A stretch of 64,000 nt of DNA, taken from the IMG/VR virus record IMGVR_UViG_3300045988_183539; one strand, 5' to 3'. The DNA comes from a virus. Shown piece by piece: positions 47,614-64,000 of this stretch. The notes beneath the pieces were generated by a model, which made no database searches, had not been told where the DNA came from, and was given only the letters and a program-made list of their open reading frames with translations. Numbering within the stretch: position 1 is the first letter of the stretch; each line of letters begins with the position of its first letter. Position numbers and translations under genes: made by a program.

Positions 47614-47865
47614 ATGGAATTTAATAACGAAATAGTAGAATTTATTAACAGATATAGCAATATAAAAGTAGAGTACAATAATACAGAAAATGTAATTAAA
47701 AATATAGATATGTTGCATAAAGATATTTTAAAAAATTTAGATTTACAGAAAGAAATTTCAAGAGAAGAAAGAAATATTATTTGCGATGAAATAATTCTTG
47801 CTACAGGAGCTTTGGAAAGAATTAAGAATATATTAAATGATAATTTAAATGATAGTATAGATTAA
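47614..47865 (+). CDS. hypothetical 83-aa protein
   Basis: AAGGAGAAAAATATG RBS. Confidence 0.45.
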   Translation: MEFNNEIVEFINRYSNIKVEYNNTENVIKNIDMLHKDILKNLDLQKEISREERNIICDEIILATGALERIKNILNDNLNDSID

Positions 47866-47882
47866 AAGGAATATATAATTTT

Positions 47883-48362: not shown

Positions 48363-48378
48363 AGGTGGTATATATACT

Positions 48379-49176
48379 ATGATGATAGCTTTAACATATA
48401 GATGTAATATGGGATGCACTCATTGTATTTCAGATTGCAAACCAGATGGAATAGATATGAGTAAAGACACTCTTATTGATAGTCTTGATTTTATAAATAA
48501 ACATAAAATAAAAGCAATATTGTTTTCTGGCGGTGAACCATTTGAGCATCCAGATATTATATCTTTACTTGATGTTATAGAAGAAAAATTAGATAAGAAT
48601 ACCCCTATTACCTTTGCTACAAATGGAAGAGTTTTAGCAGATAATATTGAAATTTATGAAAAAGTATCTGAATTAGTTAAGAAGAATAAGAAAAGAATAA
48701 TCATACAGGTAACAGATGATGATAGATTTTACCCTACTAAACTTAATGAAAAGCAAAGATATAGACTAGAAAAGATAGGTGCTGTTATAGAAGGTGTTCC
48801 TAGCTATGTTTCTGATAGAAATAAATGTTTATATCCACAAGGTAGAGCTTTAGATAATTTTGATGAATCTTTTTATTATACTATTGCACCTAAATGCGTT
48901 AATATACGATTATTAGTAAGACAGAATATAAATAAAATATCTAATATATGTGATACATTGCTTATGAGAGGAAAGATGTGTACTCCAGTAATTGCTCCTA
49001 ATGGTATGCTAAAAATAGGAGAGTCAGCCTTGTGTCCTGAAGTAGCTTCAATTTATGATAATGAAAAAGATATTATAAATAAAATATCTCATTTTAATTG
49101 TAATAAATGTACATATGCACTTGAACAATTAAAGAAAAATAATCTACCTGCTTATAATCTATTAATAAAGGAGTAA
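48379..49176 (+). CDS. radical SAM enzyme with Cys-rich SPASM/twitch-like C-terminal domain
   Basis: CNMGCTHC (CxxxCxxC), FSGGEPFEHPD, C-terminal CVNIRLL...CDTLLMRGKMCTPV...ALCPEV...NCNKCTYA. AAAGGTGG RBS before ATG 48379. Confidence 0.6.
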   Translation: MMIALTYRCNMGCTHCISDCKPDGIDMSKDTLIDSLDFINKHKIKAILFSGGEPFEHPDIISLLDVIEEKLDKNTPITFATNGRVLADNIEIYEKVSELVKKNKKRIIIQVTDDDRFYPTKLNEKQRYRLEKIGAVIEGVPSYVSDRNKCLYPQGRALDNFDESFYYTIAPKCVNIRLLVRQNINKISNICDTLLMRGKMCTPVIAPNGMLKIGESALCPEVASIYDNEKDIINKISHFNCNKCTYALEQLKKNNLPAYNLLIKE

Positions 49177-49178
49177 TT

Positions 49179-49700
49179 ATGGGAAATTATTATAAAGGAA
49201 ACATCCGATTTATATTAAGAAAAGATTTACCAGAGTTTATAATAGATGCTTTATTATTTATACAAGATAAAGATTTTAAAATGCCTAAAAAATAATCAGG
49301 AATAGATATTTTTAATGAAGAAAATAGAAATAAGGTCAATATTGATTTTTCTGCTATAATAGATGATATAGATAATACTATGTTTATAGATAAAGATAAT
49401 TATAAATATATTACTAATATATATAAAAATCAAATTGTTGGATATGAATTATTTGTTTCAGTAATACTCAATGGTAAAAATAATTATAATGATTTAATTG
49501 ACAAATGGTATTCTTTCTTTAAAGATTACATAGATATTTCTTTAAGCAAAGAATGCTTTACAGTTAAAAATGATAATATTCTATTAGGAGAAGTTCACGA
49601 TGAAGATGGTACTTATGATAGATATTATCTTCTAAATACCCCATATATTATTTCAAATTTACAAAAATATATAAATTATGAAAATGATTATGAGGTATAA
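49179..49700 (+). pseudogene. gene with strong RBS interrupted by an in-frame TAA at 49293-49295
   Basis: AAGGAG RBS before ATG 49179. 49179 and the track ORF 49380-49700 share a frame (difference 201 nt). Only one stop separates MGNYYKGNIRFILRKD...KMPKK from SGIDIFNEEN... Confidence 0.4.
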
Positions 49701-49719
49701 ATAAGCTTAAAATATGTCT

Positions 49720-49760
49720 TTTTTTTCACTCTTTCGCATTATTATTGTATAAATAAAAAA
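49720..49760 (+). promoter_or_regulatory. promoter cassette family member (clearest copy: TTCACT-17-TGTATAAAT)
   Basis: TTTTTTTCACTCTTTCGCATTATTATTGTATAAATAAAAAAGGAG. Confidence 0.45.
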
Positions 49761-49772
49761 GGAGATAAAAAG

Positions 49773-49952
49773 ATGAAAAAGATTAGATATGCGATTGAAA
49801 AAGTAATAGAAGTTCCTGAAACAGAAGGGGAAGAGTCAATTAATAATATAATCCGCAGAAGATGTGAAGAAGAAGGTGGATTAGATTATATTTATACAAC
49901 AGAAGATGATATGAAGAAAAATAGATGTAAAAGTTTGTTTGATAATATTTAA
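49773..49952 (+). CDS. hypothetical 59-aa protein
   Basis: AAGGAG RBS; just under the track cutoff. Confidence 0.4.
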   Translation: MKKIRYAIEKVIEVPETEGEESINNIIRRRCEEEGGLDYIYTTEDDMKKNRCKSLFDNI

Positions 49953-50005
49953 GAATTGTTTTACAAAAAGCCGCAGGAATAAGAATAAAAAAAGGAATAT
50001 AAAAA

Positions 50006-50284
50006 ATGATAAAATTAAAAATAGGTAGAAAAATCTATGAATTAGATAGTAAAGATATAATTTTAGACAATGGTGTCAGCTATCAGATTATTACTCAAAA
50101 AGATACAAAAGGATTTAGTTGGTCTTATCCTGTAATGAGTAAGAAACTTTTCAATAATTTAAAAAAATCTGAATTGATTTTTACAAATGAAGAGTTACAA
50201 CAGGCAGCTATAGAAGAATATAATACTCAAATTATAACTTATTGGAAATTCAATATAACCAAAATGAAAGAATTAGGTTATTAA
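50006..50284 (+). CDS. hypothetical 92-aa protein
   Basis: AAAGGAATAT RBS. Confidence 0.45.
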   Translation: MIKLKIGRKIYELDSKDIILDNGVSYQIITQKDTKGFSWSYPVMSKKLFNNLKKSELIFTNEELQQAAIEEYNTQIITYWKFNITKMKELGY

Positions 50285-50313
50285 AAAATCACTTTTTAAT
50301 GAAAGGAAAATAT

Positions 50314-50706
50314 ATGACATTAAAAGAATTAGAGTTTCTTAAGAATATAAATAAAATCAATGAATTAATAACAGCAAAGGATTTACTAAATACAAAAGAC
50401 AGAACATTACTTTATGGCTATATGTGTACAAGAGAAACATTTCACGTATATTTAAAAAATAATGAAATTCATACTGTTATATACAGTAGAGATTATAGTG
50501 AAAATAGTATAAAACCTAAAAATATGAGAGAAATATCAATAAAATCAAACGATAATTATATACCAGATAAAAGGCTATACCCTGAAACTTGTGATTATGA
50601 ATTTTGTGTATTATTAAAAGAAAGAGATATTTATTTACCATTCACTACCTACGATGAAAAAAGACCTTTGCGTAACTACTATGGATTTACTTTAGAGGAT
50701 ATATAA
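50314..50706 (+). CDS. hypothetical protein
   Basis: AAAGGAAAATATATG RBS; track start 50242 lacks an RBS. Confidence 0.45.
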   Translation: MTLKELEFLKNINKINELITAKDLLNTKDRTLLYGYMCTRETFHVYLKNNEIHTVIYSRDYSENSIKPKNMREISIKSNDNYIPDKRLYPETCDYEFCVLLKERDIYLPFTTYDEKRPLRNYYGFTLEDI

Positions 50707-50811
50707 TGAAAGATTGTTTTTAATAACAGAGTGAAGAAATAAAATAGGCAATATTCAAAAAATAGAAGAGTTATGTTATTAAAAAATTATTTTTAATAGG
50801 AGGTTTGTATT

Positions 50812-51108
50812 ATGAATATATTATTATCTGATGATGAAATTATACAAAAAATAAAAATGTATCCTGTTCCTAACTGGATATGGATTGAAATATGGGAAAT
50901 GTCTCAATATGAGATACAAGTTGTAATTACTGTGAACAAAGAAGAAATGTGTCATCTGGCAGACCATATAGTTATTCATACTTGTTCGGCTCAAACAGAT
51001 AATGAGAATGATATAATTGAATTAAAAACATATGGAGGATTAATAGTAAAACTAATAAGAAAGAATTTTCCGAATAGTAATGTTCATAGCAGACTTTATT
51101 ATAGATAA
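50812..51108 (+). CDS. hypothetical 98-aa protein
   Basis: GGAGG RBS. Confidence 0.45.
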   Translation: MNILLSDDEIIQKIKMYPVPNWIWIEIWEMSQYEIQVVITVNKEEMCHLADHIVIHTCSAQTDNENDIIELKTYGGLIVKLIRKNFPNSNVHSRLYYR

Positions 51109-51585
51109 AAAATGTTTTTATATAAAATAGTAGAAGGCGATAAATATGAAATGTAAATGTGTAAAAAACTCACATAATAATAGTAATTTTAATTTAGAGC
51201 ATATTTATAAAGTTGAAGAAAATATTGGCATATAGCCTCCAATATTATGCAGATTTAGGTATTGAGATAATCCCAGCACATTATTTAAAAGAATGATTTT
51301 TGAATTTGCTATGTGTAAATTTGAAGTAATATAATAATATTTATGATATTTTATGAATATTATACATTAAATAAAGTAAGGAATGATTTATATATAGAGT
51401 AATTTATAAATTTTACAGTGGTGGTTATAAAATAAGTGATAAAATGAGCTTAGAAGATGCCAGAATTTTTAAACTAAAATGTTTAGAAATGTATTATAAA
51501 GAAGATGAAGTTTATATTATACAAATAATAGAATAAAAATATATTAAAAATCCAGTTTTATACGAAAAGGAGAACTAAAAATAAA

Positions 51586-51924
51586 ATGAATAAACCTCCA
51601 ATATATGAATGTTCAAATTGTTATAATGAATTTTCAGAACAATTATATCCTGTAAATATATCGAATGTCAGATGGGTGAATCTGATATGCGACAAATACC
51701 CAAACGGTTGTATTCAGATAAGCTGTTATGATGCTCAAGAAAATGCTTATTATGCAACGAAACTTTTAAAATGTTATGTGAGTAAGAAAGGCAGATATGC
51801 AATTTGGGGTAAACATAGATTTTATGAAGGATATAGCGGTGGTCTTATATTGAGAGGTGTTCCGTATAAGTCTATTGAAACTATAAGAGATGCGGCTAAA
51901 CCGTATGGAACGATAGTAGAATGA
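51586..51924 (+). CDS. hypothetical 112-aa protein with N-terminal CxxC...C pattern
   Basis: AAAGGAGAA RBS; YECSNCYNEF. Confidence 0.45.
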   Translation: MNKPPIYECSNCYNEFSEQLYPVNISNVRWVNLICDKYPNGCIQISCYDAQENAYYATKLLKCYVSKKGRYAIWGKHRFYEGYSGGLILRGVPYKSIETIRDAAKPYGTIVE

Positions 51925-51943
51925 AAGAATGATTTAAAAGAAG

Positions 51944-52258
51944 GTGTTTAAAATTAGAACAGAAACAAAAGTAATAAAGTTATTATTAAAAGAATTATAT
52001 CCAAATGAAACATTTTCAGTACATCTAAAACAACCTTATTCATATATTAGTAACTCAGACAAAATAAAAATAAAATGTCCTAAATCAACAAATAAAAAAG
52101 ATGTAATTAGTATATTGAAAAAATATGTATATGGTATTGATGTTTATGAAAAAGGAAGTTTTGGGTATATAAAACATATTGATAATACACCATATATCAT
52201 CTTAATGAATGGTGAAAAAATAGATATGGATATGGTTGAATTTATTGAAGTAGAGTAA
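51944..52258 (+). CDS. hypothetical 104-aa protein
   Basis: ORF track. Confidence 0.4.
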   Translation: MFKIRTETKVIKLLLKELYPNETFSVHLKQPYSYISNSDKIKIKCPKSTNKKDVISILKKYVYGIDVYEKGSFGYIKHIDNTPYIILMNGEKIDMDMVEFIEVE

Positions 52259-52281
52259 GGCAATAAAAGAGGTGATTAAAA

Positions 52282-52569
52282 TTGTGGAAAAGGTCTTTAG
52301 ATATTTTTCCTAGTGAATACATTAATCCAGAACACGAAAACGAATTAAATAACGAATTAGAGCTTGGAGATTTTGCAAAAGTTATAGTTGACTCTCAATT
52401 TCAAGATAAATATGAAGATGGTTCTCAATTTCCAAGATTTTTAGGATTAATAGGAAAGGTGATTAATATTAATATATCTGATGAATGGTCTTATCAATTA
52501 TTATTTGAAGATGGATTAACAAATTGGTTTAAAAGATATATTTTAGAAAAACAAATAATAGATGTTTAA
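52282..52569 (+). CDS. hypothetical 95-aa protein (TTG start); truncated paralog at 53083-53184
   Basis: AGAGGTGA RBS. KRSLDIFPSEYI is repeated as KRPLDIFPEEWI in the 33-aa ORF at 53083. Confidence 0.4.
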   Translation: MWKRSLDIFPSEYINPEHENELNNELELGDFAKVIVDSQFQDKYEDGSQFPRFLGLIGKVININISDEWSYQLLFEDGLTNWFKRYILEKQIIDV

Positions 52570-52639
52570 AATAAAAATAGAAGTAAAGATATTGTTAAAA
52601 TAACCTTTATTTTATGTTTTTTAAAATAAAAGGATGATA

Positions 52640-52887
52640 TATGAAAATTATAGAGACAGATTTGAAAGATTTTTCAGATAATGATACTAAAGCCTTTTAT
52701 TTAGAAAAAAGAAGGACAATATACAATCTCTGAATTCATAGAGCTTTTACAGGCGGCTAAAGAAAAATTTGGTGATAAAGAAATTTTAATCCACGATATG
52801 AATGATGGATGTTTATACGGATTTTCTCATATATATTTAAATAAAGGAAATAATGAAGAAGATAGTGCTATATGTATATATGCATAA
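52640..52887 (+). pseudogene. small gene disrupted by a frameshift in an A6 run near 52700
   Basis: MKIIETDLKDFSDNDTKAFYLEK... stops, then continues in the +1 frame as GQYTISEFIELLQAAKEKFGDKEILIHDMNDGCLYGFSHIYLNKGNNEE... Confidence 0.3.
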
Positions 52888-53249
52888 ATTAAAAAGGAGA
52901 AAAAAATGGATTTATAGATATATTATAAAATAGATAATGATTTATATTTTGATAAATATGAAGTGACTTGTTCTTGTTCTGATAATTTGTATTACGCATC
53001 TAATATAAATGATAATCAGTATCGTATAAAAACATAATAATATTGATTTAGACTAATAGTTTGGTTAAGATTGGAGTATCATATGGATAAGTTAGATAAA
53101 AAAACATACATAAATATTGTTAGAAAAATTATGAAAAGACCTTTAGATATTTTCCCTGAAGAATGGATAATAAGTGTTTTATAATAAGCTGATGATAAGA
53201 TTTATAATAAAAAGTGATAAAGAGAGATTTAATACAGGTTTCTCTTTAT

Positions 53250-53285
53250 TTTTTTTTACTTTTTCACACTATTATATATAGATTA
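53250..53285 (+). promoter_or_regulatory. promoter cassette family member
   Basis: TTTTTTTTTACTTTTTCACACTATTATATATAGATT. Confidence 0.4.
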
Positions 53286-53407
53286 AGAAAATTAAGATTT
53301 ATGGAGAGTCAAAAGTAAGCCAGCAATTTAGATTTGAAAGATATTTCGGATGATAATAATAATAAATTAAATAAAAACTGAAACTATTAGAAACAAGAAA
53401 ATCTTAT

Positions 53408-53470
53408 CTAACAGAAAGGAGAATCGCTTCTCCCCTCAGCTAAAGCTAAGGGGTTTCAGCGATTAATTGA
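53408..53470 (+). ncRNA. GC-rich nested hairpin element in the 5' leader of 53478
   Basis: GGAGAATCGCTTCTCCCCTCAGCTAAAGCTAAGGGGTTTCAGCGATT holds mutually exclusive stems (ggagaa/ttctcc; cccct/agggg; aatcgct/agcgatt) in 28% GC DNA. Confidence 0.35.
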
Positions 53471-53477
53471 TGGAGTT

Positions 53478-54146
53478 ATGAAAAATATAAGTAAAAAGAA
53501 ATCATTCTGGAAGGAATTTTTTAATGAGTGTTATGGAGTGATAGCATTCGGAGCAATTACGATATCTATTGTTTTATCTGCCATTGTAGGAAATCTGATA
53601 TTGCCATGTATAAATAATGGAGAGGCAATAAATCCGTATATAGAAGATGTAAGCGGTAAGTTTACATTATTTGTAATAAAAACAGCCATAGGCGGTTTGT
53701 ATTTATTTGGTGTTATTTTCATACTATTAACTGCTTTTTCTATTATAGGCATAATTGTAATAAACTTAGTAACTGGAATAACGCATATACTAGCTGTAAA
53801 AAGATATACATACCTGCCATTAACAATAGATGAAGTAAAAGAAGCTATAAATGTAGGATTATTTGAAGATACTCCTGAAAGCTATACAGATTATCTTGCA
53901 AAACAGATGAAGTATTTTGGTGGCAGTGTAACCTTTTCAGTTGATGATATGAAAATGATAATAAAAACAATAAAAGCAATATGGAATCAATCCTTTAAGC
54001 TTAATAAAGATTTTCTTATTAGAAATAAAATAGAAAGTTATCATCAGCTTCCATTTGGACTTAAGGATGACAGAGCCGATTTATTTTGCAAATTAGAGAA
54101 AAACCAAACAGTATCTTTTGATATGAACGACGTTTATTTCATTTAG
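53478..54146 (+). CDS. polytopic membrane protein
   Basis: 222 aa, four or more TM helices. Confidence 0.5.
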   Translation: MKNISKKKSFWKEFFNECYGVIAFGAITISIVLSAIVGNLILPCINNGEAINPYIEDVSGKFTLFVIKTAIGGLYLFGVIFILLTAFSIIGIIVINLVTGITHILAVKRYTYLPLTIDEVKEAINVGLFEDTPESYTDYLAKQMKYFGGSVTFSVDDMKMIIKTIKAIWNQSFKLNKDFLIRNKIESYHQLPFGLKDDRADLFCKLEKNQTVSFDMNDVYFI

Positions 54147-54237
54147 AACATCAGGTGAAAAGCTGTTTGCATTTAGGCATGAAATTAAGGAAGTTCGTGC
54201 TTTTGTTGCTAGTAAGAGAAAGGAGAAACAATATAAA

Positions 54238-54624
54238 ATGATACATACTTTATCAAAGATATTTATGAATTATGGAGAATCTAATTGGACCGTAGGCGTA
54301 TTAATAGGATTTTTAATGATTACAGCATGCATTATTTTATTTGCAATAGGAATATGTAGTAAAGGAAAGTTAAATATTGCTCTAATAGGACTAATGTTAA
54401 TTATAATTGGAGCAATAATTCTTATTATATCCTCTGTAAATTGTGAAAATGATAATACAAAAAATATAAATGAAGCAATTAGAAAAGAATATGAAGACGC
54501 TTCCTTTATTAAGAGAGACAACAAGTTTACAAGCAATAATATAACATATATTTATTACGTTAAAAATAGAAAAATAGTAGTGTATTCATTATCAAATAAT
54601 GAGAATATTAAAATTATTGAATAA
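54238..54624 (+). CDS. membrane protein (two TM helices)
   Basis: ORF track. Confidence 0.45.
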   Translation: MIHTLSKIFMNYGESNWTVGVLIGFLMITACIILFAIGICSKGKLNIALIGLMLIIIGAIILIISSVNCENDNTKNINEAIRKEYEDASFIKRDNKFTSNNITYIYYVKNRKIVVYSLSNNENIKIIE

Positions 54625-54721
54625 TTTGTATAAAGAGAAAGAAACTATGATTTTTGCAACAGGAGAAAATAATACTCTTATAGATAATATAACCATAGAT
54701 TAATAGAAAGGTAAAACTATT

Positions 54722-55109
54722 ATGACCAGGAATAAAAAGATAGAAATTTGTAAGATTAATTATAATGCTATAAAAAAATCATATAAACATGAACAAATAA
54801 TGAAAATTATATTTATAATTTTATGTTTGATATTATTTTCTTTATTTTTATGCTTGATATATAAAGAAAACGAAAAAGTTCCTTTTTAAAGCAGGACTAA
54901 TATTAGCTATATTCTTTATTTTCCTTTTAGCAATAATAATAACAAGTATTATAGTAGATAAAAAAGTATTAGGAATCGTTAAAGATAGTATTAATAATAA
55001 CGATTATGACATAATTTTAAAAGATGATAATAAGTATTATACATCTATAGACAATGGATTAATTTTATTTACATATGATGGAATAGTTCACAATAATGTA
55101 AAAATATAA
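54722..55109 (+). pseudogene. two-TM membrane protein gene disrupted by a frameshift in a T5 run near 54870
   Basis: MTRNKK...FSLFLCLIYKENEKVPF* then -1 frame KFLFKAGLILAIFFIFLLAIIITSIIVDKK...NVKI*. Confidence 0.3.
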
Positions 55110-55130
55110 GATAGAAAAGGAAAAATAAAT

Positions 55131-55610
55131 ATGAATACGAAAACATTAAAGAAAGAAATATTAAAATTTATCATAAAAGATGGATTATATATAATAATAG
55201 GGTTTATGATTATAGCTATATTTACTTATTTTGTAGTGAAAGATATATTCTCACCAACAATGATAATTCTTAGTATAGTAGGTTTTTTTGTAATATTTGT
55301 AATACTTCAATCATTTTTGTTATATAATGATGAGATAGATGAAATAGATGAAATAGATACAAGGCTTTATATTAAAGAGTTAATAGATAAGGATATACCT
55401 TTAGATATACAATTATGTCCAGATAATTTTAATCAATGTATTGAAATTAAACATTTTGCTATTGACTATTATGGTGAATTAAAGTTAAGAATAGATACTT
55501 TATATGATTATGGTACTGAGTTATCAATTATAATGAAACCTATTGATAAAGATAATAAGAAAATAGAAATAGATAATGAATTAAATGTTTATGTTTATTT
55601 AAAAATATGA
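55131..55610 (+). CDS. membrane protein (two TM helices) with EIDEIDEID repeat
   Basis: ORF track; AAAGGAAAAATAAATATG RBS. Confidence 0.45.
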   Translation: MNTKTLKKEILKFIIKDGLYIIIGFMIIAIFTYFVVKDIFSPTMIILSIVGFFVIFVILQSFLLYNDEIDEIDEIDTRLYIKELIDKDIPLDIQLCPDNFNQCIEIKHFAIDYYGELKLRIDTLYDYGTELSIIMKPIDKDNKKIEIDNELNVYVYLKI

Positions 55611-55814
55611 TAGGATTAAGATAATATGAATATAAAAGTGAGGAAGAAGACATATGACAGATATATTAAAATTAAGATGTTATATGGATGAAACATCTAC
55701 TCCTTATAATGAAAATGAAATTCAAACATTAAATATTAAAGAAGATGATTAATTTAAAAATTTTATCAATATAATTTTAAAGCTGGTGTAAAAGATATAT
55801 ACATCAGCTTTTAT

Positions 55815-55850
55815 TTTATTTTTATACACTATTATTATAAAGATATAAAT
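55815..55850 (+). promoter_or_regulatory. promoter cassette family member
   Basis: TTTTATTTTATTTTTATACACTATTATTATAAAGATAT after the agctggtg...catcagct hairpin. Confidence 0.4.
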
Positions 55851-55872
55851 TTGAAAAATGAAAGGAAAAATA

Positions 55873-56019
55873 ATGTTTGGTAATATTTTATATGTTCTAT
55901 TAATATTATCTTTGATATCTTTTGTTATAAAAGGTATTAGAGATAAAGATATTATTATTTGTTTGTTTAATGTGATGGTCGCTTTTATGATAAGCGTTAT
56001 ATACTTTTGTATATTTTAA
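55873..56019 (+). CDS. 48-aa highly hydrophobic peptide (small membrane protein; type I toxin-like)
   Basis: AAAGGAAAAATAATG RBS; MFGNILYVLLILSLISFVIKGIRDKDIIICLFNVMVAFMISVIYFCIF. Confidence 0.4.
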   Translation: MFGNILYVLLILSLISFVIKGIRDKDIIICLFNVMVAFMISVIYFCIF

Positions 56020-56039
56020 TAATAGGGGTAAGAATAATA

Positions 56040-56328
56040 AATGCAAAAATTTGTAAAAATTAATAACGAAGTGGACACGCCTGTAAGAATAAGGATTGCC
56101 TGAGTTGCCAGGTGGAAACTTAAATATCAAACTTCTTAAATAGGGGCACAGCCCCTTAGAAGCCCATTACCTTTAGGTGATGGGGAGTTCACATGTAATC
56201 TATTTTGTTGCAGAAGACTGTTTAAGCCAGAAAACTTTTGTAAAAAATATGGCTGGAATAAAACTTGTAGAACTTGCCAGCAAAAAGGAAGTTATAAATT
56301 ATTTGAATAATAGTATGAATGATAAAAG
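56040..56328 (+). ncRNA. candidate structured RNA / long structured 3' region ending at a terminator
   Basis: Locally GC-enriched with GGGGCACAGCCCC and CCCAT...ATGGG hairpins and a repeated TTGCCAG. No convincing + strand ORF. Ends at the intrinsic terminator 56329-56358. Confidence 0.3.
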
Positions 56329-56358
56329 ATGTTCTTAAGAATAAGGACATCTTTTTTT
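56329..56358 (+). terminator. rho-independent terminator
   Basis: gatgttctta-agaa-taaggacatc + T7. Confidence 0.55.
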
Positions 56359-56685
56359 ATGACCTTATTTTTATAAAGTACTTTATAAGAAATTATTCAT
56401 TAAAATATAAAAAATTATAGCATAAAGATACTAACTTTTTGTTATTAGGATAAAAAATAATATATATTTTTTGTAAAAATCTATATGTAAATTTAAAATT
56501 TATTACACAAAAGGTTATTTTTAATATAATCACAAAAATTATTAAACACGCTAAATAAAACATAAGGGATTTTATAAATAGACATACTTTAAAATCTATT
56601 ATATTAAACATTTAAGGCTACTAAAATTTCAACAATATAATATCTATTTGTGTAATAAATTAATAATATATACTCTTTATTTTTA

Positions 56686-56745
56686 TTTCTAAAAAAATTT
56701 CTAAAATTCTAAAAAAGTCTAATAAATACTCTAAAAAGATTTCAC
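56686..56745. repeat. iteron-like direct repeats (TCTAAAA(A) x4) upstream of the primase-helicase gene; candidate replication origin
   Basis: TTTCTAAAAAAATTTCTAAAATTCTAAAAAAGTCTAATAAATACTCTAAAAAG. Confidence 0.4.
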
Positions 56746-56812
56746 TTTATAACATTATTTTTATAAAAGAAAAAATAACAGAAGTAAAAAAATAAGAAAG
56801 GAAAGATTTATT

Positions 56813-56956
56813 ATGATTGATTTAAATAATATGCCAATAGATGAACTTAAAAAATATTTATCAGAAAATAATTTATCTATCGTATGTGAAGATGGAAAGA
56901 TTGTTTCTACTGTTTTAGAAAAAGAAGCTGATTTTGAAGACGAAAAAGAAATTTAA
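56813..56956 (+). CDS. hypothetical 47-aa acidic protein
   Basis: AAGAAAGGAAAG RBS; absent from the track because of size. Confidence 0.3.
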   Translation: MIDLNNMPIDELKKYLSENNLSIVCEDGKIVSTVLEKEADFEDEKEI

Positions 56957-57001
56957 CAACATTATTATTAAAAAAAATACAAATGAGAGGAGTATCTGCT
57001 A

Positions 57002-59674
57002 ATGAATAGTAATAATATTGTTGAATGTATGTTTTTTGGTCAGAGATTTAATGAAAAGCCTTCTAAAATGGAAACAGGATATATACAGAAGAATATAACG
57101 ATTGCAAACATAACAATAGAAAATTTAGCAGAAGCTCTTGTTAATGGTGCTTCTTTTAGACCAAGCATATTAATAGGGGGACGTACAAAAGATGATTGGA
57201 AAAGACAACAGCTTTTTGGTTTAGATTTTGATAGTGGTGTTTCTATTGATGCATCATACAATAAAGCTATATCATTAGGTCTTATTCCTGTATTTATGTA
57301 TACTACATTTAGTCATACTCCAGAACATCACAAATATAGAATGATTTTTTGTACAGATAAAGTCATTACAGATATGGCTTTAAGAGACAAATTCCAAGCT
57401 ACTCTTATGGGTTTAATGGGAGATATAGATAAAGTATGTTTTAACAGAGATAGATTATTTTTTGGAGGAAAAGGTAAAGAAATACTTTTTCCTAATTTCA
57501 ATGCAAAACTTAATGCAGAAGAAATTATAGATAAGTATTGGAAAGATGATTTTGAAGTATATATAAAAGGACAAACTAAGTCAAAAAAAAGAAAATTAAA
57601 GAAAACAACAGAACCTAAGCAAAATAATTCATTTACTGTTATAAATTATGAACCAGATATTGATGAAATACCTTATGCAAGTTATCCAGTAAGATGTGTT
57701 ACCTTAGGTAATTTACGTTGTCTAAAAAAATATTATGATAGTATTATTTGGGCAGAAGGAATGCACAGAGAAAGATTTATTTTTATTTACTACAATTGTG
57801 TTAAATTACTTTATGGTTCAGATAGAGCTTATAAAGAATGTATAGAATTAAATAATAGTATGGAAGAACCATTAACAACATATGAATTAAAATCTGCAAT
57901 AATACATACAGATGAACATATGGAAAATAAAGATTGGTATAGAAAAGCATTACACGGAGATGGATGTTTTATTTTTAGACCTGAAACAATTATTTCAGAT
58001 AAATGGTTAAATATAGATGAAGAAACAGCTATAAAATGTGGATTTTTTGATAATAAAATAAGAAAAGAAAAAATAGAAGAAAATAAAAAGTTAGATACTC
58101 TTAGAGATAAAGAAGTAGCTAGATTATATTTATCTGGATTAGGTTATAAAAAAATAGTTAATAACCTTTCTAAGGAATATAAATGTAGTGCATCTACAGT
58201 TAAAAGAACTATAGAGAGATTAGGAATAAAAGAAAGAAATATTTCTTTAGAAGATATAGAGTTTAATGAAAATAAGAAGTATGCCAAACATTCGTTTGGG
58301 GTGCCGAAAGTGACTAAACTAGAAAAAGAAGTTTTTAAGGTAAAGTCTAAAAAAGAAATATCAGATAATAAAGAAGATAATATAGTATTTTTAAATGAAG
58401 ACTGTAAGAGATTATATGAAACGTCTAAAAATGCAGGGTCAGAAAGTAATATTAATGAACAGGAGATAGCTATTGAAACAATATTAAATAATCCTACAGT
58501 TAATTACTGTTTAAAAGGTAAAGCTGGTACAGGTAAAAGTTATTGTATTAATAGTTTATTACAGAGATTAACAGAAGAAGAAAGAAAAAAGACATTAGTA
58601 GTAGCTCCAACAGGAGTAGCTGCTTCTAATATTACATATACAACAGCTCATACAATACATTCAATATTTGAGTTATATACATTCGTACAAAGACAAGATG
58701 AACATATTAGGATACCTAAGATTTTATTAAATGTAGATAGAATTATCATTGATGAAATAGGTATGGTAAGAAAAGATGTATTTAATCAGTTAGTACGAAT
58801 TATTAATAATGCTCAAAAATTAACAGGTAATAAAATACAGTTAATATTAGCAGGAGATTTTGGACAGATTTCCCCTGTTGTTACAAAAGAAGATAAAACT
58901 GTAATGGATATTTATTACAAGGGAAGTGAAGATAAATATTTCTGTTTTGATAGTCCTTTATGGGATAGTTTAGATATTCATACAATAGTATTAAGAAATA
59001 ATCATAGACATAATAATGATGATTGCGATGAATTACAGAAAGAATTTATTAATATATGTGATGAGATTAAATTTGGAGCTATATCAGGATTAAAATGGTT
59101 AAATAATAACTTAAAACATACTGCTATAGAAGATGGAATATATCTTTGTGCTAATAATAAACAGGTTGATGTTTATAATAAAATGTATACAGATAAATTC
59201 ACAGATAAAAAGACATATAATGCTGTATGTTTTGGAATTACATCTGAAAGAAAATTACCTGTAAAGCTTAGTTTAGAATTAGCAGTAGGTATGAAAATAA
59301 TGACTCTTGTTAATACAAAGAAATACAAGAATGGTAGTTTAGGAGTAATAACAAAGCTTTATAAGGATAAGATTAAAGTAAAGTTAGATAATACAGGAAA
59401 AGAGATTACTGTAAAATATACTGAATTTAAGATAAATGAAGAAACTGATGAAGTATTATATCAGTTACCAATAGCTATAGCATATGCTATTACTGTAAAT
59501 AAAGCACAAGGATTAACATTAGAGAAAGTAAATATTGTTCCTGGCTTTTTTGCGGCAGGACAATTATATACAGCTATAACAAGAATAAAGAATGTACATA
59601 ATATTAGTATTATTGGTGAATTAAAAGAAACTGATTTAGTTGTAGATACAAGAGCATTAAGTTTTATTGCTTAA
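57002..59674 (+). CDS. replication protein: N-terminal AEP-type Prim-Pol + PriCT-like region + HTH, fused to a C-terminal Pif1/RecD-like helicase
   Basis: N-terminal LFGLDFDSG (DxD) and TTFSHTPEHHKY (SxH) primase-polymerase motifs; HTH ASTVKRTIERLG. Helicase motifs LKGKAGTGKSY, VVAPTGVAASNI, IIDEIGMV, ITVNKAQGLT, AAGQLYTAITRIKN. GAGAGGAG RBS. Confidence 0.7.
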   Translation: MNSNNIVECMFFGQRFNEKPSKMETGYIQKNITIANITIENLAEALVNGASFRPSILIGGRTKDDWKRQQLFGLDFDSGVSIDASYNKAISLGLIPVFMYTTFSHTPEHHKYRMIFCTDKVITDMALRDKFQATLMGLMGDIDKVCFNRDRLFFGGKGKEILFPNFNAKLNAEEIIDKYWKDDFEVYIKGQTKSKKRKLKKTTEPKQNNSFTVINYEPDIDEIPYASYPVRCVTLGNLRCLKKYYDSIIWAEGMHRERFIFIYYNCVKLLYGSDRAYKECIELNNSMEEPLTTYELKSAIIHTDEHMENKDWYRKALHGDGCFIFRPETIISDKWLNIDEETAIKCGFFDNKIRKEKIEENKKLDTLRDKEVARLYLSGLGYKKIVNNLSKEYKCSASTVKRTIERLGIKERNISLEDIEFNENKKYAKHSFGVPKVTKLEKEVFKVKSKKEISDNKEDNIVFLNEDCKRLYETSKNAGSESNINEQEIAIETILNNPTVNYCLKGKAGTGKSYCINSLLQRLTEEERKKTLVVAPTGVAASNITYTTAHTIHSIFELYTFVQRQDEHIRIPKILLNVDRIIIDEIGMVRKDVFNQLVRIINNAQKLTGNKIQLILAGDFGQISPVVTKEDKTVMDIYYKGSEDKYFCFDSPLWDSLDIHTIVLRNNHRHNNDDCDELQKEFINICDEIKFGAISGLKWLNNNLKHTAIEDGIYLCANNKQVDVYNKMYTDKFTDKKTYNAVCFGITSERKLPVKLSLELAVGMKIMTLVNTKKYKNGSLGVITKLYKDKIKVKLDNTGKEITVKYTEFKINEETDEVLYQLPIAIAYAITVNKAQGLTLEKVNIVPGFFAAGQLYTAITRIKNVHNISIIGELKETDLVVDTRALSFIA
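58285..58341 (+). repeat. copy C of the conserved ~55-nt element, embedded in the primase-helicase CDS at the linker between HTH and helicase domains
   Basis: AAACATTCGTTTGGGGTGCCGAAAGTGACTAAACTAGAAAAAGAAGTTTTTAAGG; encodes ...KHSFGVPKVTKLEKEVFKV... Confidence 0.7.
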
Positions 59675-59735
59675 ATAAAAAGCAGTTAAAAAATACAATA
59701 CATAAATTAAGATTATATGAAAGGAAATTAAAATT

Positions 59736-60209
59736 ATGGATAAAAGAAAAGTAATGACAGGACATTATCAGGAAAATATGTTTGGAGATTTAATGGATAG
59801 AGAAGATTATTTTCATAAGCTGCCGAACCTTTCAAGAAGACAGGTAGAACTTCCTAAGGAAAAAGAGAAAGTATTTTTTATAAAAGAAGATGAAATTGAT
59901 TGGGGATTAAGAAGCCAAGAGCTATTAGATGAAGAAAAAAATACGATATATGAAGTATATGATTTAACTGAATGTCCAGAAGATGCAACAATATATAGAG
60001 ATTTATTTAACGCTAATGATTATATTGCTGCATTAAAATTAGGAATGAAATTAGCAAAAGAAGGTTACACATCTATAAAAGTTATGGATATAGATAAATT
60101 AAATGAATATCTTGAAAGTAAGAATAAAGAGAAGGCTGTAGAAAATACTAAAGAAACAACAAAAGAAATAGCTGATAAAGAAATAGAAGATTTGTTCATA
60201 TTAGATTAA
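59736..60209 (+). CDS. hypothetical 157-aa protein
   Basis: AAAGGAAAT RBS. Confidence 0.45.
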   Translation: MDKRKVMTGHYQENMFGDLMDREDYFHKLPNLSRRQVELPKEKEKVFFIKEDEIDWGLRSQELLDEEKNTIYEVYDLTECPEDATIYRDLFNANDYIAALKLGMKLAKEGYTSIKVMDIDKLNEYLESKNKEKAVENTKETTKEIADKEIEDLFILD

Positions 60210-60283
60210 AGATATAAATATCTTTTCTGTAATGTTCTTATGTAGATATTAAATTATCAAGAAAAGAAGGAAAGTAAATATTA

Positions 60284-60604
60284 ATGGAGTTTGCAGTACA
60301 AAGCAATGTTATTAGAGGACTTTCAAAACAGCAATATCAGACATTAATGGAATTATGTCAGTATTCAAACAATCTTTACAATGTCGCACTTTACAATATC
60401 AGACAATATTTCTTTAATGAGAAACAGTTTTTAACTTACGAGAGTAATTATCACGAGTGTAAAGAAAATGAAAACTATGCTTTGTTACAAGCAGGAGTTG
60501 CACAACAGACTTTAAAAGTCGCTGATAGAAGTTTTAAATCATTCTTTAATCTGTTAAAGAAATGTAAAACTGGTGATTATCGTTACCATAAAGTTCACAA
60601 GTAG
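60284..60604 (+). pseudogene. N-terminal fragment of an IS200/IS605-family TnpB (OrfB)-like protein
   Basis: 106 aa resembling the TnpB N-terminal helical region (LSKQQYQTLMELCQYSNNLYNVALYN...LLQAGVAQQTLKVADRSFKSFFNLLKK...YHKVHK*), then a stop; RuvC-like and zinc-finger parts are absent. Confidence 0.4.
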
Positions 60605-60633
60605 CAATAGAGATTTCAATTTCTAATAAAAGA

Positions 60634-60855
60634 ATGCGAAATACTAATTTTGATATTTTACCTGACGAATATACAAAAATACTAATAACAAAAGATAATA
60701 AAGATGAAAATAATAATATTGAAAAGCTACCATATTATGATTTCATATATGAGTTATCTAAAGGCAAACAATTATTAGAGTACAAGAGAACTCCTATAAA
60801 AGTAAATGAACCTAATATAGAGCAAGAAAAAATATGTGATATAAAAACACAATAA
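60634..60855 (+). CDS. hypothetical 73-aa protein
   Basis: ORF track. Confidence 0.3.
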   Translation: MRNTNFDILPDEYTKILITKDNKDENNNIEKLPYYDFIYELSKGKQLLEYKRTPIKVNEPNIEQEKICDIKTQ

Positions 60856-60872
60856 TAAAATATTTTTAAAAT

Positions 60873-60909
60873 AAGGGCTGTTTTTTAAGACAGAACCCTT
60901 ATTTTTTTT
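60873..60909 (+). terminator. rho-independent terminator
   Basis: aagggctg...cagaaccctt + T8. Confidence 0.55.
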
Positions 60910-60945
60910 CACTTTGAGACAATATTATTGTATAAAGTGATATTG
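60905..60945 (+). promoter_or_regulatory. promoter cassette family member
   Basis: TTTTTTTTCACTTTGAGACAATATTATTGTATAAAGTGA. Confidence 0.4.
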
Positions 60946-60971
60946 TTGTAATTATAAAAAAGGAGCGAAAA

Positions 60972-61223
60972 ATGTTTAATATTCGTAAAAAGAAACTAAA
61001 AAAGATATTAGATAGACAATATGAGTGTTCTTCATTAAGAGATTATTTAAGAAATATAACACATAAAGAATTACATATACTTGCAGAAGAAATAATATGG
61101 AAAAATTATGATGGTTATAATACAGAAGCTTGTTTATCAAAACAAAAGCATTATGATTATATGGATAGAGATAGTAAAGAATTTTTTATATATGAAAATA
61201 GTTCTCTATTAGGATTATATTAG
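60972..61223 (+). CDS. hypothetical 83-aa protein
   Basis: AAGGAGCGAAAAATG RBS. Confidence 0.45.
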   Translation: MFNIRKKKLKKILDRQYECSSLRDYLRNITHKELHILAEEIIWKNYDGYNTEACLSKQKHYDYMDRDSKEFFIYENSSLLGLY

Positions 61224-61252
61224 TTTTTTATTAATATAAGGAGCATATAACA

Positions 61253-61810
61253 ATGAAAAAGAAAAGTTTTATAAAAGAGTTTATAAAAAGAAATGAAGAA
61301 TATTATGCAGAGTTTCTTGTATTTTTAGATGTTACTATTTCTTTTATTATAGGAGGAGTAATAACATTTTTAACAAATAATCATTCAGAAAATAATTGTT
61401 ATTTTTTTATTAATTTACTTGAAAATATAATTATTGTGTTAATTATAAGTTTTTTAATAATGTATTGTTTATTTTTAGTATTTGTAAAAATAATTCCTAA
61501 TGTTATTAATTTTGTAAATAAACAGAAAGCAATTTATAAATATGTTCGTTTATTTAATGAACTTGAAAATAGAAAATTTTTAGATACAGCTTTAGATGTT
61601 ACAGCATATATTATAAAAATATTAAATTATAAAAAAGCAGATGGTTCTTTTTCAGTTATAAAATTAACAAAGGAAGATACATATAAGTTATCAGATTTTT
61701 ATAAAAAAAGATTTAATGAGCCTATAATGATAGAAGATAAAATGTTTAAGAAAATTGGATATAAAAATCCATTTCCATATAGCGAAGTTATATGGTGTTC
61801 TAATCCTTAA
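61253..61810 (+). CDS. membrane protein (two TM helices)
   Basis: AAGGAGCAT RBS. Confidence 0.45.
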   Translation: MKKKSFIKEFIKRNEEYYAEFLVFLDVTISFIIGGVITFLTNNHSENNCYFFINLLENIIIVLIISFLIMYCLFLVFVKIIPNVINFVNKQKAIYKYVRLFNELENRKFLDTALDVTAYIIKILNYKKADGSFSVIKLTKEDTYKLSDFYKKRFNEPIMIEDKMFKKIGYKNPFPYSEVIWCSNP

Positions 61811-61907
61811 AAAATAAAGCTTCAATATTGTTTTTTATAAAAATATGACAATATATATAAAATAATTAATTTATTTCTTACCAATAAAGAAAAGAGGATA
61901 AAAAGCT

Positions 61908-62798
61908 ATGGATAATACAGCTTTAGCAAAGAGAATGAAAAAATATTATGAAGAAGTACCTAAAACAAGATTAATAAGAAGAATGCCAGTATGTATAAGA
62001 TTAGATGGAAAAGCATTTCATACGTTTTTAAAGGGATTTAAAAAGCCATTTGATGATATATTTATAAAAACAATGCAGGATACTATGAGATACTTATGTC
62101 AGAATATACAGGGATGTGTATTAGGTTATTCACAATCAGATGAAATCAGTTTAATACTTATAGATTATCAAAAACTCACAACAAGTGCCTGGTTTGATTA
62201 TAATGTTCAAAAGATATGTAGTGTGTCATCAAGTATGGCTACATTAACCTTTAATAAGCTATTAAAAAACAATGTTGATAAATATAAGGTTGAAAAATGG
62301 GATGGAGTTTCAAAGTATAAAAATGGAGAAGATGAATATATTGAGACATTATTAAGAGCAGTTGATAAAGGTGCAATGTTTGATAGTAGATGTTTTAATA
62401 TACCAAAGGAAGAGGTTGCTAATTTAATATTCTGGAGACAATTTGATGCAAGCAATAATTCAGTACAAATGGTAGGACAGGCTTATTTTACGCAAGAAGA
62501 ACTTAATAACAAGAATACTAATCAGATACAGGATATGTTAATGACACAGAAAGGCATTAACTGGAATGATTATCCTATTTATCAGAAGAGAGGAAGTTGC
62601 TGTATTAAACGAAAATTCTGGATTGATAAAAATGATGGGTGTGAATTTAGTGAAGAATATTCTTGTGAATTAGAAAAAGCAGGCGTTAATAGTGATAATG
62701 CTATTAAAAAAACAGAATGGATTATAGATAAAAACATTCCTATATTCAAAGGAGAAAACAGAAAATATATAAATGAATTAATACTTTTTAAGGAGTAA
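61908..62798 (+). CDS. Thg1-like protein (TLP): tRNA-His guanylyltransferase-family 3'-5' nucleotidyltransferase
   Basis: PVCIRLDGKAFHTFLKGFKKPFD and VLGYSQSDEISLIL match the Thg1 RLDG-x-FH-x-F and GQSDEYSF catalytic motifs; C-terminal ANLIFWRQFDASNN matches the Thg1 WRQ region; 296 aa. Confidence 0.65.
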   Translation: MDNTALAKRMKKYYEEVPKTRLIRRMPVCIRLDGKAFHTFLKGFKKPFDDIFIKTMQDTMRYLCQNIQGCVLGYSQSDEISLILIDYQKLTTSAWFDYNVQKICSVSSSMATLTFNKLLKNNVDKYKVEKWDGVSKYKNGEDEYIETLLRAVDKGAMFDSRCFNIPKEEVANLIFWRQFDASNNSVQMVGQAYFTQEELNNKNTNQIQDMLMTQKGINWNDYPIYQKRGSCCIKRKFWIDKNDGCEFSEEYSCELEKAGVNSDNAIKKTEWIIDKNIPIFKGENRKYINELILFKE

Positions 62799-62804
62799 AA
62801 ATAA

Positions 62805-63002
62805 ATGGATAATGTGTGGCATATATTTGACAAAGAATATCCAGATAAAAAATTAATAAAAGGGAAAAGATATTTGATTTGCACTTGGAGTAATGAGTAT
62901 TTTTGTGCTGAATTTACAGGTGAAGATTTTTTTGGATATCCATTATTAACAAAAGCTTGGGCTGAATTTGAAAGATTTGAAGAAAAAGAATATAAAAAAT
63001 AA
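62805..63002 (+). CDS. hypothetical 65-aa protein
   Basis: ORF track; 6 nt after the previous gene. Confidence 0.4.
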   Translation: MDNVWHIFDKEYPDKKLIKGKRYLICTWSNEYFCAEFTGEDFFGYPLLTKAWAEFERFEEKEYKK

Positions 63003-63112
63003 GTTTGAAAAATAAAAGGAGAATTTTAGATATGGGAAGTTATACAAATTATAGTATGGAAGTAATAGATATTGATAATTAAGGATATAATGCATATAAA
63101 ATTGCAAAATAT

Positions 63113-63298
63113 ATGTTAGACAAAAATAATGAAGCTGAAAAATATTATGCTTTTTATAATAGTTTAGAAAATTTTATAGAAAATATTGACCCTACATTAA
63201 AAATAGATTATTTCCTGATATACTTTTTAAATTACACGAAGAAGGTGAAAGAAATGAAGATATATTGGATAAAGTATTTTATAAATGGAAAAATGTAA
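63113..63298 (+). CDS. hypothetical 61-aa protein
   Basis: ORF track. Confidence 0.3.
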   Translation: MLDKNNEAEKYYAFYNSLENFIENIDPTLKIDYFLIYFLNYTKKVKEMKIYWIKYFINGKM

Positions 63299-63390
63299 CA
63301 TTGCCCAGCAGAAATACATATTCCAGAATTTGATGGAAACAAATTAGAAGGAATAAGTCAAGATAATATAGAAATGGATAGGTAAAGATT

Positions 63391-63615
63391 ATGGAAAAAG
63401 GAACAGATATATGTTTAGCAGAGATAGCTTTTTTAATATTAAGAAATATTCCTAATGGGTATTCAAAAGAAGAAAAAGACTGTTTTGGAAATGGTGTTAT
63501 TACTATGTTAAACACTTTACAAAGTACACTTGATATATTAAAAGAAAATTCTAATATAAGTATGGAAGATATTGAAAATATTATAAAAAAAGAGATTTTA
63601 TTGGGGAAGGAATAA
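63391..63615 (+). CDS. hypothetical 74-aa protein
   Basis: ORF track. Confidence 0.35.
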   Translation: MEKGTDICLAEIAFLILRNIPNGYSKEEKDCFGNGVITMLNTLQSTLDILKENSNISMEDIENIIKKEILLGKE

Positions 63616-63621
63616 ATATAT

Positions 63622-64000
63622 ATGGTCAAAAAAATAAGATTAATTGGAGACAAAACAACTAATTTATTTTGTATGAATTTAAAACAATATTTTAATTTTA
63701 TAGGTACTTATGTTGAAATAGATTATGTGTATGATTATATTTATAAAAACGATTTTATAGATAAAGAGTTATTAAATGATTTATTTATAATAACAGATAA
63801 TAAAGAAAATAATATAAATATTGAGTATGATTTAGTAATTTCAACAATTAAAAATACAGGTAGTGACATTTATATTATAGAAGACAGTATAAATCAAATA
63901 AAATACAATTATGAAGAAGACATAAATATTATTTTATCTCTATTATTAAAAAATAATTATATTACAGAAGATGAATATGATGTTTTAAATATATTAAATC
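63622..64000 (+). CDS. hypothetical protein, 5' portion (continues beyond the window)
   Basis: GGGGAAGGAATAAATATATATG RBS; open frame to the window end. Confidence 0.35.
   Translation, partial: MVKKIRLIGDKTTNLFCMNLKQYFNFIGTYVEIDYVYDYIYKNDFIDKELLNDLFIITDNKENNINIEYDLVISTIKNTGSDIYIIEDSINQIKYNYEEDINIILSLLLKNNYITEDEYDVLNILN

Follow-up and report, generated by a model that had tools for sequence, protein, structure and literature searches.

The window (the whole 64-kb stretch of DNA analysed here) carries on its plus strand a small open reading frame (ORF) at 55858-56019, which encodes 53 aa, or 48 aa when counted from the ATG at 55873. The sequence AAAGGA is located 5' of it. The initial annotation had described a hydrophobic peptide ORF with a ribosome-binding site here, and this ORF is indeed present. 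Its product consists of two hydrophobic segments with KGIRDKD between them, a pattern also seen in the neighbouring small membrane-protein genes. The peptide gave no match in Pfam or NCBIfam, and the ORF is absent from the gene calls of public contigs.

Upstream of the ORF lies the putative promoter-like stretch TTTATA-17-TATAAA (55821-55850, plus strand), as read from the sequence. This stretch did not pass the consensus promoter scan, and promoter-like sites in the AT-rich window occur at chance level (34 found, 30.2 expected). Hence, the promoter that had been assigned to the cassette was not confirmed. We also considered the small-ORF promoter as a repeated element and rejected this, as the 30-mer 55821-55850 has a single copy in the window. 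Its 16-mer core occurs eight times with up to two mismatches (3.5 expected), which is a weak excess. On the 5' side, the hairpin AAGCTGGTGTA...TACATCAGCTT with a T-rich run (55779-55826, plus strand) follows 3' of a 32-aa ORF (55654-55752) and is identical across all contigs of the variant designated A below. It is terminator-like and probably forms the left bound of the unit.

Downstream of the small ORF, the GC content amounts to 0.37-0.43 at 56050-56250, compared with 0.11-0.25 on the flanks. The plus strand of 56020-56360 folds better than its shuffled versions (z = -3.55; 0 of 100 shuffles equal), and the minus strand of the same region is not unusually structured (z = -1.68). Two plus-strand hairpins are prominent, hairpin A (GGGGCACAGCCCC, 56143-56155) and hairpin B (CCCATTACC-TTTA-GGTGATGGG, 56163-56184), and they correspond to helices 7 and 9 of the RNA scaffold described below. 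A further hairpin of 13 bp, AAAGATGTTCTTA-AGAA-TAAGGACATCTTT, is followed by a T-run (56325-56358, plus strand) and appears in both the MFE and the centroid fold. It is a putative terminator that is absent from the output of the consensus terminator scan. An Rfam scan, proposed earlier as a check on this region, gave no match at gathering score in the whole 64-kb window and chance-level hits only at E values up to 10 in 55600-56600.

A sensitive blastn search of 55760-56420 against plasmids gave a match which is confined to 56067-56142 of the window and which coincides, in six out of six records, with a gene annotated as tnpB (or "transposase"). Three plasmids were examined (Butyrivibrio pCY360, Clostridium botulinum pCLJ, and a Mycoplasmatota plasmid). 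There, the match comprises the last ~37 nt of tnpB and ~40 nt downstream with 80-91% identity, the value of 91% (E 6e-20) being that of pCY360. The pCY360 protein was tested as an example and is a genuine TnpB (NF040570 at 7e-53; OrfB_IS605 and Cas12f1-like_TNB). By tblastn, window 56068-56103 translates to EVDTPVRIRIA followed by a stop, which is the exact C-terminus of the family TnpBs (...GEVDTPVRIRIA before the stop codon). This TnpB remnant contains only the last 11 codons and the stop (36 nt). The omegaRNA (reRNA) of TnpB is encoded across the tnpB 3' end and the right end of the transposon (PMC10097598). Hence, the overlap of the matched stretch with the tnpB 3' end and the downstream DNA places it at the position of a TnpB guide RNA.

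Based on blastn, family alignment, covariation, and a covariance model, 56067-56192 (plus strand) is what remains, after 5' truncation, of the omegaRNA scaffold of an IS200/IS605-family TnpB element. In L094 and L061, two copies located behind an intact tnpB, 119 of these 126 nt (94%) are identical. At 69 of 69 strongly conserved columns the window matches the family consensus, and no point decay is seen in the retained 126 nt. The covariance model, which was built from 42 intact members, scores the window with 129.7 bits (E 7.8e-35). The invariant core of the family, GTGGRAACTTAAWTAYCAAACTTC, has one copy in the window. Besides 18 IMG/VR contigs, at least 120 genome contigs from gut and rumen Bacillota contain this conserved core, and a genome often has several copies. 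A TnpB match is located just upstream of the core in 101 of 142 occurrences, and most of the others stand at the start of the fetched stretch. By homology and structure, the GC-rich hairpins descend from the omegaRNA of an IS200/IS605-family, TnpB-only (IS1341-like) insertion sequence. The initial annotation had suggested an sRNA-type locus. This is right insofar as the hairpins come from a structured non-coding RNA gene, namely a TnpB omegaRNA; a new sRNA locus is not present.

The secondary structure of the family was described with a nine-helix model. In the 42 intact members, 94.9% of the cells are paired under this model, compared with 30-51% in slid controls, and both partners change in 21 pairs. 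For covariation, the model reaches a score of 0.379 and the slid controls 0.06-0.09, and RNAalifold agrees. In the relic, helices 4-9 are intact and helix 3 is represented by its 3' strand. The retained helices include TAAG/CTTA (56090-56093/56119-56122), CCTG/CAGG (56099-56102/56109-56112), and CTTCT/AGAAG (56132-56136/56158-56162), all on the plus strand. Hairpins A and B of the window are compensated versions of the family hairpins; the Kandleria equivalents are GAACCGTCAGGTTC and CCACCTACC-TTTA-GGTGGGTGG, respectively. Helices 1-2 are missing in the window, where unrelated AT-rich sequence also stands in place of the 5' strand of helix 3. In the family, the entropy at third codon positions falls from ~25 codons (~75 nt) before the tnpB stop, which indicates that the scaffold normally starts there. 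Of this constrained 3' part of tnpB, the window retains only 12 codons (36 nt). The repeated TTGCCAG that had been listed among the features of the region is a coincidence, as one copy belongs to the stem-loop at 56099-56112 and the other to codons of a gene remnant further downstream.

The right end of the element could be determined from multiple copies. Eleven copies from Kandleria vitulina and seven from Sharpea azabuensis are identical or nearly identical up to a common 3' tail and unrelated beyond it. This tail ends in ...AGTTCAC and is written ...TAGTTCAC, ...GGTAGTTCAC, or ...GGTGGTAGTTCAC. As all 18 copies diverge past the tail, the right end of the transposon is also the 3' end of the scaffold. 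In the window, the tail is GAGTTCAC (56185-56192, plus strand), and position 56192 is thus the right end. The DNA abutting it, ATGTAATCTATTTTGTTGCA (56193-56212, plus strand), is the segment equivalent to the guide. Within the window, no further copies or targets of this sequence were found beyond chance.

The genes around the locus allow a comparison with sister elements. The helicase gene (57002-59674), a 47-aa gene (56813-56956), and the 32-aa gene (55654-55752) were found on numerous contigs (4 to 604 kb) from human-gut metagenomes, and the contigs with any of these genes sort into three variants. Variant A carries the relic and comprises the window, L142, L144, L153, L155, L163-L167, and others. 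Variant B (L143, L146-L148, L152, L154, L156, L157, L159-L161) has no omegaRNA and an intact 79-aa Cys-rich gene. Variant C (L158/L168) has a different deletion at the same place, and the accessory region is hence deletion-prone. Homology between variants A and B (98-99.7%) starts at window position 56194. From there to 56310 (plus strand), the window contains an in-frame 3' remnant (38 codons and the stop) of the 79-aa gene, intact versions of which are present in L143, L152, and L173. The relic is found in most contigs with the neighbouring 32-aa gene, across lineages which differ upstream. Copies of variant A diverge by 0-1% at the relic, which is the same as for the flanking genes (99-100% identical). 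As relic and flanks have diverged equally little, conservation cannot separate a recent origin from selection.

In L156 and L159, a vacant allele is present in which GTTTTAT is directly followed by ATGTAATCTATTTTGTTG, a perfect 18-nt match to window 56193-56210. Other contigs of variant B have the vacant allele TTTAT/CTGTAATTTATTTTGT. TTTAT precedes 24 of the 25 recognisable left ends of the family. Thus, TTTAT is the target-adjacent motif of the family, and L156 and L159 display the vacant site. A relative with a 62%-identical helicase has this vacant site too. Its genes are arranged 194 aa - 79 aa - 48 aa - helicase, and its 79-aa protein is 92% identical. As this distant relative has the uninserted arrangement, variant B, the uninserted state, is ancestral. 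Within the sister elements, the hairpins are limited to the lineage with the insertion; contigs of the ancestral arrangement have none. The conservation of the hairpins in relatives, proposed earlier as a check, is therefore a divided matter: more than 100 copies of the insertion sequence have them with compensatory changes, but the ancestral sister arrangement lacks them. Searches for more distant relatives of the element gave little. A megablast of 45000-64000 against phage and plasmid collections returned no relatives of the element and only a 76-nt insertion-sequence match. A distant blastn search against phages gave just a chance 49-nt AT-rich match, and a helicase-based search of IMG/VR revealed no relative.

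The left border of the scaffold is a deletion junction with a microhomology of three nucleotides, CGA (56067-56069). At this place, the window reads ...ATTAATAACGA/AGTGGACACGCC, L154 reads ...ATTAATAACGA/TATACAATT, and the insertion-sequence family reads ...GTAGAGGCGA/AGTGGACACGCC. The window thus tracks L154 and L158 up to ...ATTAATAACGA and then the insertion sequence (...GCGA/AGTGGACACGCC). The small-ORF cassette corresponds to window 55799-56069 and has 99.6-99.8% identity in L154 and L158, both of which are without the RNA relic. By comparison with these contigs, the cassette (up to 56069) is independent of the relic. In L154, the cassette is followed by an intact 132-aa gene (2244-2642 of that contig; start MQKFVKINND...), and L158 has the same 5' sequence and then a 101-aa remnant of this gene. 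In the window, the first nine codons of the 132-aa gene run in frame into the final 11 codons and the stop of tnpB, which gives a chimeric 20-codon ORF, MQKFVKINN/EVDTPVRIRIA plus stop (56041-56103, plus strand).

These borders can be combined into a two-step history. A TnpB-only insertion sequence would have entered the 79-aa Cys-rich gene directly 3' of TTTAT. Its scaffold would overlap the last tnpB codons and end with ...AGTTCAC, and the following DNA, ATGTAATCTATTTTGT..., would be the guide. Later, ~2.5 kb delimited by two CGA triplets would have been lost, namely the left end, tnpB apart from the final 36 nt, the 5' portion of the 79-aa gene, a 195-aa gene, and the rest of the 132-aa gene. 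This deletion would have joined the 126-nt scaffold to the first nine codons of the 132-aa gene, on the 3' side of an unrelated small membrane-protein ORF. A transcript from the small-ORF promoter would run through the relic and stop at the terminator that once served the 79-aa gene. Of these points, the homology and the structure of the remnant, its right end, the vacant site together with TTTAT, and the two junctions can be read directly from the DNA. The insertion probably preceded the deletion, and the relic is probably without function today. Taken as a whole, the structured region is very probably transposon debris, i.e., an inert relic left by an insertion and a subsequent deletion. An exact search of JGI metagenomes for the junction of right end and flank, aimed at an intermediate from before the deletion with a full insertion sequence, gave no hits. 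Likewise, no full insertion sequence was found at the locus among the contigs listed for the helicase, the 47-aa gene, and the 32-aa gene.

The hairpin with T-run at 56325-56358 also follows the intact 79-aa gene of variant B, and it occurs in variants without the ORF cassette and without the RNA. It probably belongs to the disrupted 79-aa gene. The region thus begins with 126 nt of RNA scaffold, continues with 117 nt of gene remnant, and ends with the terminator of that gene. For the initial annotation, this means that the high GC content and the hairpins of the ~290-nt region are real but do not form one unit. The clean terminator exists as a 13-bp hairpin with a T-run, but it is part of the end of the 79-aa gene and not of the cassette. 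The statement that no plausible ORF follows the peptide has to be corrected in part, as 56068-56103 is the end of tnpB and 56194-56310 is the 3' end of the 79-aa gene. The supposed unit of promoter, peptide, RNA, and terminator is a chimera of three unrelated pieces.

Three other readings of the locus have to be weighed. A type I toxin-antitoxin system, or a peptide with an sRNA, would comprise a membrane toxin controlled by the downstream RNA or by an antisense transcript. The largely hydrophobic ORF of 48-53 aa with its ribosome-binding site would suit such a toxin, and the strongly structured region on the same strand with a hairpin and T-run at its end would suit the RNA. However, the linkage between the two fails. 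ORF and RNA are adjacent only through the deletion that made the junction at 56067-56069, and the ORF cassette exists without the RNA in L154 and L158. In addition, the structured region is homologous to a TnpB omegaRNA (E 7.8e-35), the minus strand is not unusually structured, and no toxin or antitoxin match was obtained in Rfam, Pfam, or NCBIfam. The peptide has two hydrophobic segments, as do the products of the neighbouring small membrane-protein genes. We consider this reading very unlikely. The chances are slimmer still for a mobilisable miniature element (PATE-like, non-autonomous IS200/IS605) with both ends and an omegaRNA and no protein gene. Standalone mobilised omegaRNA loci are described in PMC10691335, and the right end is intact in the window. 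However, the window contains no left end (three mismatches allowed), the left boundary is a junction with a gene of the element and not TTTAT plus a left end, and only a single copy exists in the window and the sister DNA.

The third reading is that the truncated omegaRNA still works as a guide. It would be transcribed from the small-ORF promoter and loaded in trans by a TnpB of the same family, provided by the host or the element. The RNA may then direct the cutting of sister elements with the vacant TTTAT/ATGTAATCTATTTTGT allele, and repair from the copy with the relic would spread the relic together with the cassette (a guide-only homing drive). By analogy to phage sgRNAs with Cas9, it may also act as a decoy that soaks up the TnpB of the host. 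In line with this, the retained scaffold is undecayed (69 of 69 conserved columns), and its 126 nt compare with 116 nt that suffice for ISDra2 TnpB (PMC10097598). The guide has a perfect 18-nt match, next to the correct TTTAT motif, in a vacant allele that circulates alongside it. The relic, present in most contigs with the 32-aa gene, sits between a plausible promoter and a terminator. TnpBs of the family are common in gut Bacillota, standalone omegaRNAs are able to act in trans (PMC10691335), and phage sgRNAs that subvert Cas9 offer a precedent (bioRxiv 10.64898/2026.06.01.729453). On the other side, the breakpoint lies inside the covarying scaffold, with helices 1-2 lost and helix 3 broken. 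The CGA microhomology is the mark of an accidental deletion, which also destroyed three genes. Moreover, neither the window nor ~310 kb of sister DNA yielded a cognate TnpB, and the sole intact TnpB seen in sister contigs is of another family. One sub-lineage has a stem-breaking change and a 12-nt duplication where scaffold and guide meet, and similar truncated relics with other breakpoints exist elsewhere. On balance, a working guide is unlikely, and we prefer the inert relic.

The relic stands in surroundings in which the other parts of its insertion sequence were searched for. The 64-kb window contains no full tnpB, no sequence like the left end or its hairpin (up to three mismatches allowed), and no other copy of the RNA family (model R1); the ~310 kb of sister DNA also lack further copies. 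The only intact TnpB seen in the sister contigs (377 aa, L164/L171) belongs to another family, and the RNA region downstream of it fails the model. A TnpB N-terminal fragment at 60284-60604 of the window stems from a distant lineage and is decaying. We considered this fragment and the relic as one split gene and rejected this, as the fragment is ~50% identical to the family with the 94%-identical RNA. Its downstream position and the lack of a left end before it also led us to reject the fragment as the tnpB of the relic. In the L153 sub-lineage, a stem-breaking G->T change in helix 7 (hairpin A) is accompanied by a 12-nt duplication at the junction of scaffold and guide. Equally lower model scores suggest that L163, L166, and L170 share these changes. 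In bacterial genomes, 5'-truncated solo copies with other breakpoints were found in L024, L074, L100, and also in L022 and L073.

Several known systems are comparable. The omegaRNA of ISDra2 from Deinococcus radiodurans likewise spans the tnpB 3' end and the right end, has a multi-helix scaffold, shows a last hairpin with a UUUA loop ~20 nt from its end, and takes its guide from the right-end flank. A scaffold of 116 nt is sufficient for ISDra2 TnpB, and the 5' region is dispensable (PMC10097598). The 5' target motif is TTGAT in ISDra2 and TTTAT in the family of the relic. Unlike the ISDra2 omegaRNA, the relic belongs to a sequence family without an Rfam model. It is also 5'-truncated, lacks tnpB and the left end, and is located on a giant gut element instead of a bacterial chromosome. 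Standalone omegaRNAs without an effector (Altae-Tran et al. 2021) are stated in PMC10691335 to be able to work in trans with a compatible effector. That source calls them "evidently mobilized" and places them in genomes that also hold effector loci. They share with the relic a scaffold and a guide without adjacent TnpB or transposase. The solo state of the relic, in contrast, comes from an internal deletion into the scaffold, and no left end or compatible effector was found in the data searched. The phage vsgRNAs which subvert Cas9 (bioRxiv 10.64898/2026.06.01.729453) are also guide RNAs on a mobile element without its nuclease. However, the vsgRNAs are intact, selected, and experimentally active, whereas the relic is truncated and known here from its sequence.

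The closest system is the TnpB-only family of Bacillota (Kandleria vitulina, Sharpea azabuensis, Lachnospiraceae, Butyrivibrio pCY360), whose TnpBs have 416-422 aa and start with MYLTVKQQVKHLSKE.... The relic shares with it a 94% identical scaffold, the last 11 codons, the right-end tail, and the TTTAT motif; it differs in that it represents the last 126 nt of an element of ~1.6 kb. The omegaRNA family is hence of a known kind, although Rfam has no model for it. TnpB omegaRNAs, their overlap with tnpB, their role in homing, and standalone copies have been published, and the locus adds a truncated member of the family. As the locus is explained by known biology, no new RNA or toxin family has to be counted.

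The family, as defined here by its nine-helix structure, the TTTAT motif, and the right end, is abundant in gut and rumen Bacillota and present in some viral contigs, and its alignment and covariance model could be used for annotation. The relic guide still matches a circulating vacant allele. If it were loaded by a host-encoded TnpB of the same family, rival sister elements could be cut and converted by recombination. With the vacant site, the remnant of the insertion, and the deletion junction in one population of elements, the locus provides a natural before-and-after pair. It also illustrates that IS200/IS605 elements invade very large low-GC gut elements and decay there.

IS200/IS605 elements have entered the giant host element repeatedly. 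Apart from the 5'-truncated omegaRNA scaffold at 56067-56192, the window holds a TnpB fragment on the plus strand at 60284-60604, where a 106-aa ORF matches NF040570 positions 7-96 (E 3e-11) and covers approximately 100 N-terminal residues of a TnpB. Its identity to the TnpB family of the 56067 relic is only about 50%. No left-end hairpin was found upstream of this ORF. In the sister contigs L143, L148, and L151, the start is lost by an ATG to ATA change, the L150 copy carries a frameshift and a premature stop, and one codon is deleted in L161; the remaining changes among the sister contigs are all nonsynonymous. The fragment is a decaying TnpB relic, the second in the window and independent of that at 56067.

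An intact TnpB of 377 aa is present in some variants only. In L164 and L171 (positions 1-200 of each), the gene precedes the 32-aa gene by approximately 6 kb and its product matches HTH_OrfB_IS605, OrfB_IS605, and Cas12f1-like_TNB. The GC-rich region following the gene is presumably its own omegaRNA. Model R1, the covariance model of the omegaRNA family of the 56067 relic, gave no match at this locus in L164 or L171, and the 377-aa TnpB belongs to a different family from that of the relic.

The region upstream of the helicase gene (window ~53400-56310 and the sister loci L142-L172) is a gene mosaic whose content varies by sister contig. Its genes are small, encode mostly membrane or unknown proteins, and differ among variant A (with the relic), variant B (with an intact 79-aa Cys-rich gene), variant C (with another deletion), and their sub-variants. 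In variant C, the deletion has created a fusion in which the N-terminus of the 195-aa gene runs into the 3' end of the 79-aa gene, read in an alternative frame; the window ORF 56177..56338 uses this frame. The intact 79-aa gene (L152 3256-3495, L143 9070-9309, L173 3960-4199) encodes CCC..C..C..C..C..C motifs, and the protein has no family match. Elements with helicases of only 62% identity have 79-aa proteins that are 92% identical, so this protein is strongly conserved; despite this, the gene is lost in variant A. Within variant A, the sub-lineage of L153 carries a 12-nt tandem duplication, ATGTAATCTATT, at L153 ~3361-3384 (window 56193), exactly where the right end of the relic meets the flank, and a G to T change at window position 56144 in the hairpin GGGGCACAGCCCC.

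The host element is unusual in its GC content of approximately 22% and in having nearly all genes on one strand; the 64-kb window contains no tRNA genes. Sister contigs are up to 604 kb long. In the index of the assembly collection, 377 blocks contain the 47-aa gene, and the contigs listed for it are from human-gut-type metagenomes. Encoded products include a VirB4/TraG-like ATPase (749-3217), an endolysin-like protein (10577-11443), a Thg1-like tRNA-His guanylyltransferase (61908-62798), two Dda/PIF1-type helicases, radical-SAM proteins, and a HipA-like protein, with Tpt1-like and ADP-ribosylglycohydrolase genes outside the window. The element may be a megaplasmid or a huge phage, or of another kind. 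The 890-aa helicase has an N-terminal domain of ~200 aa (57002-57700) that shares 54-64% identity with the N-termini of hundreds of proteins of 600-645 aa, several from Lachnospiraceae and many with the primase zinc-finger domain PF01807. This similarity hints at a host or gene pool of the Lachnospiraceae type.

Upstream of the 47-aa and helicase genes, the intergenic stretch 56361-56812 is extremely AT-rich (GC 0.11-0.18). Among variant-A lineages it is only 91.6% identical, compared with 99-100% for the surrounding genes. The stretch is possibly a hypervariable control region or an origin-like one. The 16-mer TTATAAAGATATAAAT, immediately upstream of the small ORF, has eight window sites with ≤2 mismatches (e.g., 14075, 26980, 37878, and 55835), where 3.5 would be expected; eight were reached in 3 of 100 shuffles. 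This recurrence hints only weakly that the sites share a promoter-like motif.
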